Source of the DNA: an archaeon
Lineage (GTDB): Archaea > Iainarchaeota > Iainarchaeia > Iainarchaeales > 1-14-0-10-31-34
NCBI GenBank assembly: GCA_043819075.1
Contig: JBDRFE010000002.1
Span: forward strand, 82,653 to 146,652
Direction: 5' to 3'
DNA length: 64,000 nucleotides
Part shown: one piece after another, positions 15,115-21,892 of the stretch
How the letters are laid out: every line of letters starts with the position of its first letter
Position numbering within the stretch: the first letter of the stretch is position 1
Program-made: the position numbers and the translations under genes
The notes under the pieces: model-generated
Database searches by the model: none
What the model was told of the DNA's origin: nothing
Seen by the model: only the letters and a program-made list of their open reading frames with translations

Positions 15115-15299
15115 GTTTATTCCCCCTCAACCGTCACGCTCGGTTGGTGTGCGTGCACTATCTTCGCTTTTGCTCGATAGAGCTTGCACGGCTTTACACC
15201 GTGCTGTGCTTTTACAGAAGGACTGAGCGCAAGCGAATGTCGTTCTCTGGTGCCAGCTGACAGTGGCAGCTGCTTCAAATAATTTTTTTTCCATGTTTA
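15093..15299. repeat. 153-bp GC-rich hairpin insert flanked by 27-bp direct repeats (15093-15119 and 15273-15299)
   Basis: CTTCAAATAATTTTTTTTCCATGTTTA occurs twice, 180 bp apart; interior shares modules with 19141-19191 and 19410-19430. Confidence 0.9.
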
Positions 15300-17579: not shown

Positions 17580-18071
17580 TTATTCCTTGCGTTTTTGGGC
17601 TGTTTTTTCAAGCAGTTTTTTTTCAACTGTTTCTGGCACGAACTCTTTTACCCTGCCTTTCAGTGAAACAATTTCTTTTATAAGAGTGGAGTTAATGTAA
17701 AAGTATTTTGGCTCTGTCATTAAAAAAACTGTTTCAATGTTTTCATTCAAGCCTTTATTGACTGTTGACTGCTGGAATTCGTATTCAAAATCGCTTATTG
17801 CCCTTAACCCTCTGATAACAAACCTGTAATTTTTTTGTTTCATGTACTCTGCAAGCAATCCATGCAATACTTCAATTTTAATGTTCTTTTTTTTGCTGAA
17901 CAGCTCTTCAAGCATTTGCTTTCTTTCTTCTAAAGAAAACCAGTTTTTTTTTCTCTTGTTTTCTGCAACCAATACAATTACTTCATCAAACAGTTTTTCT
18001 GCCCTAGAAATTATGTCCATGTGCCCGAATGTAACTGGGTCAAAGCTTCCTGCATAAATCCCTGTTTTCAT
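17580..18071 (-). CDS. coaD: Pantetheine-phosphate adenylyltransferase, bacterial type
   Basis: YAGSFDPVTFGHMDI, IRGLRAISDFEYE, INSTLIKEI. Confidence 0.95.
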   Translation of the reverse strand: MKTGIYAGSFDPVTFGHMDIISRAEKLFDEVIVLVAENKRKKNWFSLEERKQMLEELFSKKKNIKIEVLHGLLAEYMKQKNYRFVIRGLRAISDFEYEFQQSTVNKGLNENIETVFLMTEPKYFYINSTLIKEIVSLKGRVKEFVPETVEKKLLEKTAQKRKE

Positions 18072-18955
18072 TTAATTTCGCCTTTAATTTTATTGCTTAA
18101 ATCATTAATTTTTTCCTGCAATTCCTTTAAAGTTCCATTGTTTTCAACCAAAAAATCGGCTTTCTTTTTTTTCCTTCCTGCAGGCAGCTGGTTTTTTAAT
18201 CTCTTTAAAACCTCTTCTTTTTGCATTCCAAGCTTTTCTTTTCTTTCAATCATTTTATCTTTTTTTGAATAAATCACTAAGATCTTGTCGCATAAATCCT
18301 GCATTCCTGATTCAAACAATAAAGGAATTTCTATTGCAACAAGTTTTTCTCCTCTGGCTTCTTCTTCAAGTTTTTTTCTCACTAAAGGATGAATTAACTC
18401 ATTTAATTCAGCTAATTTTTTCCTGTTATTAAAAACAATTTTTGCGATTTTCTGGAATTCAATTCCATGTTTTGAAACAGCTTCTATTCCAATTATTTCT
18501 TTTAACTCTTCTTTTACTTTCAGCATTTCTTTTTTGGCTATTGTATCTGCATTCAATGCTTTGAAGCCGTTTGATTCAAATTCTTTTAATACAGTGCTTT
18601 TTCCTGTTCCAATGCTTCCAGTAATGCCTAACACAATGCATTCCTTTTTTTTCTCCGGAAAAACTTTTTTTATTTTCCCGCAGTTTTTGCATTTAACCAG
18701 CAAAACCTTGTTTTTTATTCTCACTTCTTTGTCTTTGCTTTCAAGCAATAAAGAAAAACATTTTTTGCAGTAAAGTTTTTTCAGTTCTTTTGGAATTTTT
18801 ACTTTATTCCTCATCCCGATTTTTTTCATTAACTTTAAGTAATCCAAACTTCTTTCAGGATGTTTTTCCCATTCAATTAAAGCAAGGTCCATTAGCCTGT
18901 ACATTCTCTGCAATGCAATGTCTTCAATGAACTTCCTGTTATTTTTTTGCTTCAT
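18068..18955 (-). CDS. Fusion: RNase P protein component 4 (Rpp21) + dephospho-CoA kinase (CoaE)
   Basis: aa1-100 IALQRM..L, CKKC..LL, CKNCG; then GITGSIGTGKS, ADTIA, LNELIHPLV, EIPLLFE, ADFLVENNG. Confidence 0.88.
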   Translation of the reverse strand: MKQKNNRKFIEDIALQRMYRLMDLALIEWEKHPERSLDYLKLMKKIGMRNKVKIPKELKKLYCKKCFSLLLESKDKEVRIKNKVLLVKCKNCGKIKKVFPEKKKECIVLGITGSIGTGKSTVLKEFESNGFKALNADTIAKKEMLKVKEELKEIIGIEAVSKHGIEFQKIAKIVFNNRKKLAELNELIHPLVRKKLEEEARGEKLVAIEIPLLFESGMQDLCDKILVIYSKKDKMIERKEKLGMQKEEVLKRLKNQLPAGRKKKKADFLVENNGTLKELQEKINDLSNKIKGEIK

Positions 18956-19044
18956 AAAAGAATTAGTGGTTTAATTACTATAAATTAATAACCTATGCAA
19001 AGCATAGGTTGACATTTTTCGGCACTCACGCTCGAAAGCGTGAA

Positions 19045-19115
19045 TGCGCCCACCGGGAATCGAACCCGGACATTGAGCTTGGAAGGCTCACGTCATACCA
19101 CTAGACTATGGACGC
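19045..19115 (-). tRNA. tRNA-Gly(TCC)
   Basis: Cloverleaf GCGTCCA...TGAGC-CTTCCAA-GCTCA...GGTTCGATTCC...TGGGCGC-A; no encoded CCA. Confidence 0.95.
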
Positions 19116-19232
19116 AAACGTTTCGCCGTTTGAGCACGAAGCACTATCTTCGCTTTTGGCTCGATAGAGCTTGCACGGCTTTATGCCGTGCTTCGTACCG
19201 CACAGCCGAAACTGTGCCGAGCTTGCTTCGCC
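19116..19232. repeat. GC-rich hairpin module array upstream of tRNA-Gly(TCC)
   Basis: GCACTATCTTCGCTTTTGGCTCGATAGAGCTTGCACGGCTTTA nearly identical to 15155-15196; contains GCACGGC-TTTAT-GCCGTGC. Confidence 0.8.
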
Positions 19233-19357
19233 AATTGTGCAGACTAATTACTGTAATAAAAAGTTATTAAACTTTATTTTTTTTGTTTAACACAGAAATA
19301 CTGTTTTAGTCAGCACAAATTAATAACCAATTACAAAGTAATTGGTTGATGTTTTTC

Positions 19358-19525
19358 GTTTCTCGCGGGCGAAACCGCGATGCGAAGCACATACGGCTTT
19401 ATGCCGCAGCCGTCACGTTCGGCTGGTGTACGCGTACCACGTAAAGTGGTGCTAGCACGGCTTTATGCCGTGCGCCGTCACACTCGCACGGAAGCGAGTC
19501 GGTGCTCGCGCTCGAAGCGCGACGA
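19358..19525. repeat. GC-rich hairpin module array directly 3' of tRNA-Gly(GCC)
   Basis: 19382-19473 is the reverse complement of 41347-41438 (1 mismatch in 92 nt); 19474-19522 matches 41241-41290. Confidence 0.9.
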
Positions 19526-19745
19526 TGCGACTGCCGGGAATCGAACCCGAGTCCGAAGCTTACTGCACAACTTTTTTAAAAGTTGTATCAAAATGTACGG
19601 CATAAAGCCGTACTGTACTAAAACAATAAGTTTTTGCAAAGCAAAAACCGTTTTTGTTAAACCTTTTTTTGAAAAAGGTTTTTTTGATCAAACTTTTGGA
19701 AAAGTTTGTTGGCAAGCTCCAATTCTACCACTGAACCACAGTCGC
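19526..19745 (-). tRNA. tRNA-Gly(GCC) with 149-nt intron at 37/38 (exons 19710-19745 and 19526-19560; intron 19561-19709)
   Basis: Joined exons give acceptor GCGACTG/CAGTCGC, anticodon arm GGAGC-TTGCCAA-GCTTC, T-loop TTCGATT; TTGC/GCAG central helix at splice sites. Confidence 0.9.
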
Positions 19746-19773
19746 GTAAATAATGATTGAATAGAAATAGTTT

Positions 19774-19932
19774 TTAAAACTGGGGTTTTTCATCAAATTT
19801 AACCCATTTGTTTTTGCTTGGCTCTAAAGAGATTTTAGAGCATGAAGGGCACTGCCATACTTCAACTTCTTCTTCCCCTCTATGCTCTGTTCTCTGAAGC
19901 AACATTATTGAGCCGCATCTAAGGCATTTCAT
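19774..19932 (-). CDS. Small Zn-ribbon protein (52 aa, absent from ORF track)
   Basis: MKCLRCGSIM...VWQCPSCSK...KPQF*; two CxxC pairs. Confidence 0.7.
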   Translation of the reverse strand: MKCLRCGSIMLLQRTEHRGEEEVEVWQCPSCSKISLEPSKNKWVKFDEKPQF

Positions 19933-19936
19933 GCAA

Positions 19937-20194
19937 TCAACTGTTTTTCTGGCATGTCTGCCCTATCTGGCATTTTTCGTGGCATTCAATCCAGTCGCAG
20001 TCTAATTCTCCTGCCTGAATTTGCTGGTCGCAGTTGTTTGCGCATTGCTTTGATATTGCTTTTTGCTTTTGCTGTTCGTCTAAAACTGCTTTTCCTGTTG
20101 TCTGTGCATTGTTTACGCTCCAAAAAACAGCTATGATTAAAACAAAAAACACTACTCCTGCAAAAATCACTGCTCTATACATATTATTCACCAT
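19937..20194 (-). CDS. Small membrane-anchored Cys-rich protein
   Basis: GGAGGG SD, N-terminal TM, TGKAV, six Cys. Confidence 0.65.
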   Translation of the reverse strand: MVNNMYRAVIFAGVVFFVLIIAVFWSVNNAQTTGKAVLDEQQKQKAISKQCANNCDQQIQAGELDCDWIECHEKCQIGQTCQKNS

Positions 20195-20334
20195 TAAACC
20201 CTCCTAAAAGAAAGTAAATAAATAATATTATTCAATGTATTTAATGCTTTTGTTCTGCCTTTTTGAGAAAAAGGCAAGTTGCCAAAAACCATTTTTGCCT
20301 GCGGCAAAAATCAGTTTTACAAAAATTATTTAAT

Positions 20335-20406
20335 TGGGCTCGGGCGGAATCGAACCGCCAGTCTCGACCGTGTAAGGGTCGCATCATACCACTAGACCAC
20401 GAGCCC
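20335..20406 (-). tRNA. tRNA-Val(TAC)
   Basis: GGGCTCG/CGAGCCC acceptor, CGACC-CTTACAC-GGTCG anticodon arm, GTTCGATTC. Confidence 0.95.
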
Positions 20407-20527
20407 CGCCTTTTCCAAAAGGCAGGTTGCAACTTAATTCCAAAAAGGAATTAAGTGCACACTAAAACCAAAAGTTTTAGTGGTGCCAAAACGCACGGCG
20501 TAAACCCGTGCTGGCACTGTTTTTTAT

Positions 20528-21892
20528 TTACATTACGAGAGTTTTTATTTCTGGTGTTTCCTCTAGTTTTCCTTTTTTTACTCCGACAACATATTTCACT
20601 GAATGGTTTTTTGCTTCATCTAATAGCCTTTTGGTTATTATTCCGTCTAATACAATGGATTCAACTTGTTTTTGTGTTTTTAGCTCTGGAATTAATTCCC
20701 TTATTTTTGTTCTTTTTATTTCACGGCCTTTTTCATCCATTAAAACTGCTTCCATTTTTCCTTTAACTGAATCCATTATTGGATTAAATTTTGTTTTTTC
20801 TTCTTCTGTTGCTGGAAGTGAAAGAATCGGCCTAATTGGATTTTCGTCTGAAAACCTGTTCCTTGGACTGAATGGCCTGATGCTTCTTGAATCAAATGGC
20901 CTTGGCCTTTGTGAATCAAATGTTCTTGGTGAATCAAATTCTCTTGGCCTTTCAAATCCTCTGTTTAATGGTCTTGGAGTTGGGCTAAAGTTATTGCTTC
21001 TCATTTCAGTTCTTGGCCTGAAAGAAGAAGAAAATTTTGGCGGAAAGCTTCTTGGCTTCAAAAAAGTCTGTTTTCTTGCAATGTCTTTTGCCGGAATCCT
21101 TTTCCTTAAAGCCATTGTGATTTCTTTTTTTTGGAGTTCTTCAACTTCTTTTCCGTCCGGAGCTCTTGCAAGAAAATCTATTTTAGCTGAATCCATTAAC
21201 TGTCTTTGGATTAGTTCTCCGCCTCTGTCGCCGTCAGAAAACATTGTGACTGTTTTTCTTTTGCATAATTCTGGAATTGATTCAGGTATTTTTGAGCCAT
21301 TCATTCCTACAACATTTTTTACTCCGTTCCTTAAAAGGTTTAATACGTCTGCTCTTCCTTCAACTAAAATTATTTCTTCTTCTTTTTCTATGTCTGGTCC
21401 TGCGGGAAGCCTTTCAGGTCCCCATGCCTTGATTTCTGATATTCTGGCTGATTCTCTTACTTCTTCTGACATCTCGCCTGAACCAGTGCTTTCCTGCAAA
21501 AATTTTCCTAATAATTCTTTTGCTCTTTTTTTTATTTCTTCTCTTTTGTTTGTCCTAGTGTCCTCTATTTGTTCTACTGCAAACTTTGATTCATATGGGC
21601 CTACTTTTTCAATTGATTCAACTGCTGCTGCAAGAATTGATGTCTGCACCATGTCAAGAGATGAAGGCACAATTAATGAGCCGACGGTTTTTCCGTTTTC
21701 GGGGGACGGAAAAATATCTATTCTGCCGATTTTCCCGTTTTTTTGGAGTTCCCTTAAGTCAAGGTCTTCTCCGATTAAGCCTTCGCTTTGGCCGAATACT
21801 GCACCGATTATGTCGTGTTTGTCTACCAGGCCCTGTATTTCAAATTTTGCTTTGATGTTGTATTTTACTGTGTTAATGTAAGTTTTTCCCAT
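20528..21892 (-). CDS. dnaG: Archaeal DnaG-type primase / exosome-associated protein
   Basis: GAVFGQSEGL.G.DLDLRELQK.GKIGRI, TOPRIM VEGRADV, DGDRGG, APDGKEVEEL. Confidence 0.97.
   Translation of the reverse strand: MGKTYINTVKYNIKAKFEIQGLVDKHDIIGAVFGQSEGLIGEDLDLRELQKNGKIGRIDIFPSPENGKTVGSLIVPSSLDMVQTSILAAAVESIEKVGPYESKFAVEQIEDTRTNKREEIKKRAKELLGKFLQESTGSGEMSEEVRESARISEIKAWGPERLPAGPDIEKEEEIILVEGRADVLNLLRNGVKNVVGMNGSKIPESIPELCKRKTVTMFSDGDRGGELIQRQLMDSAKIDFLARAPDGKEVEELQKKEITMALRKRIPAKDIARKQTFLKPRSFPPKFSSSFRPRTEMRSNNFSPTPRPLNRGFERPREFDSPRTFDSQRPRPFDSRSIRPFSPRNRFSDENPIRPILSLPATEEEKTKFNPIMDSVKGKMEAVLMDEKGREIKRTKIRELIPELKTQKQVESIVLDGIITKRLLDEAKNHSVKYVVGVKKGKLEETPEIKTLVM

Follow-up and report, generated by a model that had tools for sequence, protein, structure and literature searches.

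What fills a long intron in an archaeal tRNA gene, and how is such an intron tolerated? The question is raised by a tRNA-Gly(GCC) gene of a very small, uncultured archaeon of the order Iainarchaeales (phylum Iainarchaeota; GenBank assembly GCA_043819075.1, here G000). The gene lies on the minus strand at 19745-19526 of the 64,000-nt stretch of DNA that we analysed (contig JBDRFE010000002.1, positions 82,653 to 146,652; hereafter the window), and a 149-nt intron interrupts it at position 37/38. We consider it probable that the gene is functional and that its intron has been filled by fold-back cassettes copied between loci, which persist in RNA that is discarded. The modules of the intron are best read as selfish fold-back repeats, similar to bacterial REP/BIME or PIT repeats, that gather where RNA is cut away.

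The tRNA-Gly(GCC) gene and its variable intron

ARAGORN calls the joined 71-nt exons tRNA-Gly(gcc), and their anticodon stem pairs at 5/5 positions; the exons match those of the congener G004 at 71/71 positions and those of other congeners at 66-67/71. The gene and the extent of the 149-nt intron (19561-19709) are thus as an earlier sequence-only reading had described them, with the gene on the minus strand. On the unspliced window, ARAGORN missed the gene, and with introns allowed it miscalled it as Cys; such misses and miscalls indicate that Iainarchaeota tRNA sets are probably under-annotated. A 989-nt contig of the public run X1 (depth 19), which may be the source sample of the assembly, spans 19494-20450 with 0 substitutions and one gap outside the gene, and run X3 covers 19553-19697 with 4 differences.

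No intronless Gly(GCC) gene was found in the G000 assembly (1.24 Mb, 75 contigs, 90.55% complete) or among the genus loci examined. The second Gly(GCC) gene that the sequence-only reading had proposed to look for exists only on a 3718-nt contig (C36), with a different 110-nt intron at the same site. C36 is syntenic with window positions 18100-21500 at ~77% identity and therefore probably comes from a congener; several further contig pairs at 72-96% identity suggest a second species in the bin. Crude open reading frame (ORF) calls of the genome contain 8243 GGT + GGC codons, which, with no intronless Gly(GCC) found, makes it likely that the gene is needed.

Introns at 37/38 occur in 18 of the 41 listed tRNA genes of this genome, 14 of them 57-185 nt long. 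We collected a genus set from loci around T-arm motifs of G002-G005, together with G000 and one G001 locus, in which 12 motif matches are unlisted and some others were skipped as unlikely. Five of its 78 intron calls were dropped as misparsed; the 73 kept have a median of 100 nt and a maximum of 196 nt, and 60 reach at least 40 nt (the Leu(TAG) intron, 35 nt, was excluded from later counts). The Gly(GCC) gene was read in 32 genomes of the order, a convenience sample, and in 15 of them it has an intron.

In the comparison with sister genomes, the intron site proved to be occupied in four congeners and in C36, with orthologous introns of 84, 85, 110, 149, 172 and 194 nt between exons identical at 66-71/71 positions. 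These introns have some modules in common and differ by gains and losses of whole modules. For nucleotides 13-90 of the window's intron, the Arg(TCT) intron of G005 gives a better match (93.6% identity, bit score 112) than the best orthologous Gly intron does (78.8). Nucleotides 92-143 resemble the Thr(TGT) intron of G004, in reverse orientation, at 86.5%. The Arg(TCT) intron of G000 itself consists of another, GC-rich type of module. Some introns are present in one congener and absent in another: the Pro(CGG) intron (124 nt in G002) is missing from G000, G003 and G004, the Asn intron (94 nt in G005) from G000, and the Thr(TGT) intron of this genome, of which repeats cover 155 of 156 nt, from G005. 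Short hairpin-free introns (13-28 nt) are found in the same genomes. The comparisons show that intron positions in the genus are mostly inherited and that contents have been replaced, and constraint within the intron seems to be limited to its last six bases, which follow the host tRNA.

Other tRNA and rRNA genes gave further observations. Gly tRNA introns at loci L016, L111, L112 and L078 (genomes G020, G045 and G006) are of a different hairpin module, which also follows tRNA-Leu(CAA) in G000, and a tRNA-Gly(TCC) of G033 (L135) seems to contain an insertion around its D arm, which is not a canonical position. A tRNA-Ile with a TAT anticodon (C67:12614-12687) is also present in G002-G005, and its second copy in G003 has a 42-nt intron. 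The 16S gene spans 1486 nt against 1478 in the model, indicating that it contains no long intron; no 23S gene was found.

Fold-back modules inside and outside introns

All five inverted repeats that had been described in the intron were found at their places (Table 1). The intron contains five perfect stems of at least 7 bp, against a shuffle mean of 0.5, and 0 of 500 shuffles reached five. In transcript sense, the order is tailed hairpin B, a second B, hairpin 3, module A and a reversed B. The second B and hairpin 3 form a compound unit that recurs 5' of tRNA-Asn on contig C24 and in the Arg(TCT) introns of congeners. The fourth hairpin, previously taken for a variant of a module in nearby arrays, belongs to the module A family of 46 genome copies (6 in introns, 30 in non-coding DNA and 10 in crude ORF calls), and B has 31 copies (9, 17 and 5, respectively). 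The whole intron has 13 matches in the genome at E<1e-4 and the reversed intron 0, and the density of perfect hairpins is 14.8 per kb for introns, 2.9 for non-coding DNA and 1.0 for ORFs. The suggestion that a hairpin family has colonised the intron is therefore supported and can be widened, as every module is also found beyond this intron and the whole genus shows the pattern. Two B modules were also noted inside long ORFs (L160, G000:C67:15070; L161, G000:C44:4835).

The modules are arranged by a rule. Across the genus, tailed modules lie in sense orientation in the 5' half of introns in 55 of 58 cases and in antisense in the 3' half in 14 of 15; the tailed hairpins are set as an inward pair, heads against the exons. 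The first hairpin starts no more than 3 nt from the 5' splice site in 10 of the 14 long introns of this genome (2.3 expected by rotation) and in 29 of 48 across the order (8.0 expected), where kin are non-independent; the last ends no more than 5 nt from the central-helix strand in 8 of 14 (3.1 expected). Outside introns, a hairpin lies within 4 nt at 16 of 41 tRNA 3' ends and abuts 10 of 41 5' ends, against a background of 3.1%. About 190 nt of the module chain in the trailer of the gene are 89% identical to the tRNA-Val(GAC) trailer on contig C29. A search beside the flanking arrays for tRNA-half relics, which an exit of introns by duplication would leave, found none; only two neighbouring Lys genes match each other.

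Filled and empty sites were observed at two gene starts. At rpl18a, a GC-rich module chain is flanked by a duplication that takes in the initial 22 nt of the coding sequence, or 27 nt if 5 nt upstream are counted, at 15294-15273 and 15114-15093. At a gene start on contig C56, a B pair of the intron's type, likewise with a duplication, is present in G000, G002 and G003, and the site is empty in G001, G004 and G005. Both duplications are long and unequal.

Table 1. Features of the tRNA-Gly(GCC) locus and related features in the window
Feature	Position	Strand	Remarks
Exon 1, tRNA positions 1-37, 36 nt	19710..19745	-	Joined-exon ARAGORN call
Intron, 149 nt, position 37/38	19561..19709	-	Exon joining, fold, assembly contig
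Exon 2, A38 to discriminator, 35 nt	19526..19560	-	Joined-exon ARAGORN call
Tailed hairpin B1	19679..19708	-	Stem-loop 19708-19689, from intron nt 2; A-rich tail into intron
Tailed hairpin B2	19650..19681	-	Stem-loop 19681-19659; tail inward
Hairpin 3	19630..19648	-	Second hairpin of B2 compound unit
Module A hairpin	19595..19613	.	7-bp stem, 5-nt loop
Tailed hairpin B3, reversed	19567..19594	+	Stem-loop 19567-19586 abuts central-helix strand; tail inward
Intron 3' end	19561..19566	-	4-nt central-helix strand (partner tRNA 32-35) and two bulge bases
GC-rich module chain, 3' trailer	19330..19525 (outer limit approximate)	.	First hairpin 3 nt past tRNA end
Module cassette, tRNA-Val 5' flank	20408..20491	+	86.9% over 84 nt to nt 6-89 of G002 Pro(CGG) intron
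Module insertion (GC-rich chain) in rpl18a start	15115..15272	-	Site empty in four congeners
tRNA-Gly(TCC), intronless	19045..19115	-	Module chains on both sides
tRNA-Val(TAC), intronless	20335..20406	-	

In the same neighbourhood, an ORF on the minus strand (18068-18955) fuses an RNase P Rpr2/Rpp21 domain to the dephospho-CoA kinase CoaE and adjoins a CoaD-like gene.

Excision, copying and competing explanations

The sequence-only reading had proposed a splice motif of the bulge-helix-bulge (BHB) or bulge-helix-loop type. The central helix TTGC/GCAG pairs at 4/4 positions and lies between bulges that read TA^A on the 3' side and CA^A on the 5' side; the 4-bp helix with a 3-nt 3' bulge closed by the anticodon stem corresponds to the hBH form. 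A canonical inner h' helix was not found (0 inner pairs behind a 3-nt 5' bulge, 4 behind a 2-nt bulge), and the strict hBHBh' form is absent; local hairpins could stack instead. The helix and bulge of the proposal thus stand, in a relaxed motif. In this assembly, 14 of the 18 parsed introns have a 4/4 central helix and 4 have 3/4; in the genus, with three Pro rows left out, 43 of 70 have 4/4, 25 have 3/4 and 2 have 2/4, and the helix follows the host tRNA. The splicing endonuclease EndA gave one match in each of the nine family genomes (9/9), with frames of 171-197 aa; that of G000 is 137 aa, cut by the contig end, and both Pfam domains lie in one 170-aa chain. The ligase RtcB is encoded in the genome and contains an intein (locus L179, G000:C45:2616-5432, a 982-aa frame). 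Because the helix agrees with the host tRNA at 3/4 or 4/4 positions in 68 of the 70 introns, EndA and RtcB are both present and no intronless copy was found, we soundly infer that the intron is removed by EndA and the exons joined by RtcB; the removal by splicing endonuclease suggested earlier is upheld to this extent, at a motif that is relaxed.

In the explanation that we favour, EndA would cut the intron at this relaxed motif and RtcB would ligate the exons, and the intron body would be where short fold-back DNA cassettes settle, each made of a tailed hairpin with a second hairpin behind it. Cross-locus identity and empty sites show that copies of such cassettes pass from one tRNA intron, leader, trailer or gene end to another. 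Copying would most likely take place at the DNA level, by template switching during replication or repair that keeps the stems perfect, with no dedicated resident transposase invoked. Template switching can make or repair perfect stems (PMC8794818), and it predicts complementary changes such as those at the stem foot of B, where the two variable bases complement each other in 60 of the 63 copies, with five variants among them. The excised intron would probably circularise as a by-product with no role of its own, and the cassettes would owe their persistence to the removal of the RNA that they enter.

Several observations weigh against this explanation. In the folding check proposed earlier, the intron and the whole gene fold strongly (z-scores of -6.98 and -7.24), but in the computed fold of lowest energy the register is shifted and the splice bulge is missing. 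The 3-4-3 motif can be forced at the price of 5.9 kcal/mol; the BHB forcing cost in this genome is 0-0.7 kcal/mol for short introns and 0-9.9 for long ones. The pairing probability of the central helix is 0.00, against 0.11 with shuffled interiors, so that folding lends no support to the splice fold. The single EndA, of ~170 aa, is of alpha4 size, a type for which a strict motif is said to be necessary (PMC3239211), and the intron has no canonical h'. Kin genomes are non-independent, so that genus-wide counts overstate. The exact abutment of hairpins to RNA processing sites is explained better by targeting or RNA selection than by blind template switching. The target duplications examined number only two, both at gene starts that need a long duplication for survival, and enzymes that appear to be missing may reflect assemblies that are 81-96% complete.

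A bolder proposal, possible rather than probable, is that the cassettes are archaeal intron generators: an inward pair would land at 37/38 of an intronless tRNA gene, the reversed head would supply the central-helix strand and a new EndA intron would be born, the cassettes forming a cross-domain family of tailed fold-backs together with those of giant viruses. The cassette beside tRNA-Val in the window shares 87% identity over 84 nt with the Pro(CGG) intron of G002, which is absent in three relatives; the patchy Thr(TGT) intron consists of repeats in all but one of its nucleotides; and several introns end in a hairpin that overlaps the central strand or lies directly against it. Yet most intron positions are common to the genus, and four of the seven patchy introns tested had no module match. 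The genus is not resolved in the EndA tree, so that intron gain cannot be polarised.

We think it unlikely that a Y1/HUH transposase, or another enzyme aimed at RNA-gene boundaries, mobilises the modules in trans as non-autonomous elements of REP/REPIN or PATE type on occasional visits to these genomes. Their inward paired layout resembles that of REPINs, and the head junctions are sharp. They also spread in patchy, high-copy bursts: of the 204 genomes of the phylum, 40 contain the B pattern, each in 1 to 36 copies. The pattern was found as well in 65 viral stretches, which form 38 clusters and include 13 loci named as giant-virus metagenome-assembled genomes (MAGs); the reversed pattern gave 0 in both searches. 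CGTC-type REPs, too, are without a dedicated transposase (PMC3733652). On the other hand, candidate enzymes are scarce. Neither Y1_Tnp nor a TnpB-family match was found in G000, and Y1_Tnp is absent in five of the six genus genomes and present in 9 of 41 relatives. RVT_1 was found in two of the nine family genomes and GIY-YIG in one, neither in G000, and reverse transcriptase is absent in five of the six genus genomes. Module A may resemble IS200/IS605 end hairpins; the four module patterns had no match in the 12 Y1 transposase loci read. Y1-type insertion is not known to make a target duplication, whereas the two insertions described above carry duplications of tens of bases.

Some further observations concern possible carriers. 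In G006, stand-alone Y1 transposase copies (L139, L146) share hairpin-rich flanks, one hairpin of which has a 5-nt loop, the class of module A. The genomes G092 and G122, with 36 and 18 B copies, belong to a distant family (f30) whose close kin have none. Viral B heads lie no more than 10 nt from a stop codon in 19 of 65 cases and, in one, directly after tRNA-Val. Two small viral contigs (L348, L355) carry several B modules, placed between genes that match no Pfam family, and L355 also has a tRNA-Arg and an intron-bearing tRNA-Asn. In the phage and plasmid collections the intron had no match, though the low-complexity filter may hide one.

Less probable still is that the hairpins are selected RNA-processing aids, the terminal ones replacing h' for a strict EndA and similar ones at tRNA ends assisting RNase P or RNase Z. 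When the BHB is forced, hairpin 1 comes directly after the 5' bulge, from intron nucleotide 2 on, with hairpin 5 stacked against the central helix, an arrangement that, like the excess of hairpins at both ends of introns reported above, would suit an alpha4 EndA in need of a strict motif; gene-end hairpins are processing signals in Mimiviridae (PMC4402537). Short introns that lack hairpins nevertheless exist in the same genomes, many tRNAs have no flanking hairpin, and modules are also found in ORFs and at gene starts. Moreover, module A occurs 9 and 9 times in the two orientations in genus introns, so that both loop orientations are transcribed, and some opening hairpins pair with exon bases 36-37, which would hide the cut site.

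That the stable circular RNA envisaged earlier would be a functional guide or regulator is very improbable despite the strong fold and the tRNA introns found as circles in Haloferax (PMC7714728), as the intron has no C or D box, no Rfam family other than tRNA scored above gathering threshold on it, and its content is replaced between congeners over lengths of 84-194 nt. A disrupted pseudogene or a misassembly, conceivable in a draft of 75 contigs, some from a related species, is hardly credible given the X1 contig across the gene, the intact exons, the same intron site in four congeners and C36, and the lack of another Gly(GCC) gene.

Comparison with known introns and repeats

The origin of archaeal tRNA introns is stated to be open (PMC4090602; preprint 10.64898/2026.10.13.758758), and no general arrival route was found in Asgard archaea (same preprint). 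Here, intron sequence has identifiable donors in the same genomes, and close relatives have filled and empty sites, so that intron gain and turnover can be traced. The locus also raises a biochemical question, namely, how an EndA of alpha4 size cuts long introns that have no canonical h' helix. We found no paper on tRNA introns built of repeats in Iainarchaeota, in searches that did not extend to subscription journals or to the supplements of bioRxiv preprints. The Asgard intron preprint does not contain the words 'DPANN' or 'hairpin', the Forterrea genome paper does not contain the word 'intron', and neither do the REP papers, including PMC3733652. A mobile-element model of tRNA disruption, via a recombinase cassette, has been described for Caldiarchaeum (PMC3293823).

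Canonical archaeal introns at 37/38 (PMC4090602, PMC7714728) share with this one the position, the 4-bp helix, the 3-nt 3' bulge and the use of EndA and RtcB. Archaeal tRNA introns measure 11-129 nt, with medians mostly of 12-25 nt (PMC4090602), whereas the present one has 149 nt (up to 196 nt in the genus), no canonical h', a body of dispersed repeats and no nested C/D guide. In the intron transposition of Thermoproteales (preprint 10.64898/2026.10.13.758758), related intron sequence likewise appears in different tRNA types; there, whole short introns recur, whereas here sub-intron modules move, also outside tRNA genes, and the intron position is mostly fixed.

Bacterial REP, BIME and REPIN repeats, including those tagged with CGTC (PMC3733652), are alike in being stem-loops of 20-40 bp, in forming mosaics and inverted pairs and in being mostly extragenic. 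Some lie in frame in genes, they vary between strains, and the CGTC type is not tied to a dedicated transposase. The modules differ in their apparent lack of a GTAG tag, in having no linked RAYT, in their archaeal host and in their concentration in tRNA introns and at tRNA ends. Neither a GTAG nor a CGTC terminal tag was seen at A or B modules in the flanks examined, although a CCGTY-like word precedes some GC-rich hairpins (uncounted), and no linked RAYT/Y1 gene was found in G000 and the relatives searched, whose genomes are incomplete.

The BoxC, PIT and TMECO triplex repeats (PMC4666352) are also similar: they combine a hairpin with a third purine tract, are intergenic, form inverted pairs, are unstable and have no transposon link. 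A longer, related C-type module, present in the C36 copy and not in the window's intron, has the mirror symmetry of the third strand in 25 of 25 cases, as in these bacterial repeats; the B modules of the window's intron, with about five A triplets in plain A tracts, cannot discriminate for a triplex mirror. Unlike PIT and TMECO, the modules are A/T-rich, not G/C-rich, and the C-type linker has 7-13 nt. The palindromes of the Mimiviridae 'hairpin rule' (PMC4402537) are likewise A/T-rich gene-end hairpins, and B is found in giant-virus MAG contigs (13 of 65 loci); the sequences of the Mimiviridae signals show no conservation, and B differs from them in being a defined repeat. A miniature inverted-repeat element (MITE) of a DDE transposon would be expected to have a fixed short target duplication and a cognate transposase; the two duplications observed here are long and unequal.

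The intron, then, works like a canonical 37/38 intron and departs from it only in lacking the strict h', and its contents resemble REP/BIME or PIT repeats in behaviour, with no linked RAYT gene found. What this analysis adds is the replacement of content across tRNA types, the inward polarity rule, the pairs of filled and empty sites and an A/T-rich motif in common with viral contigs.
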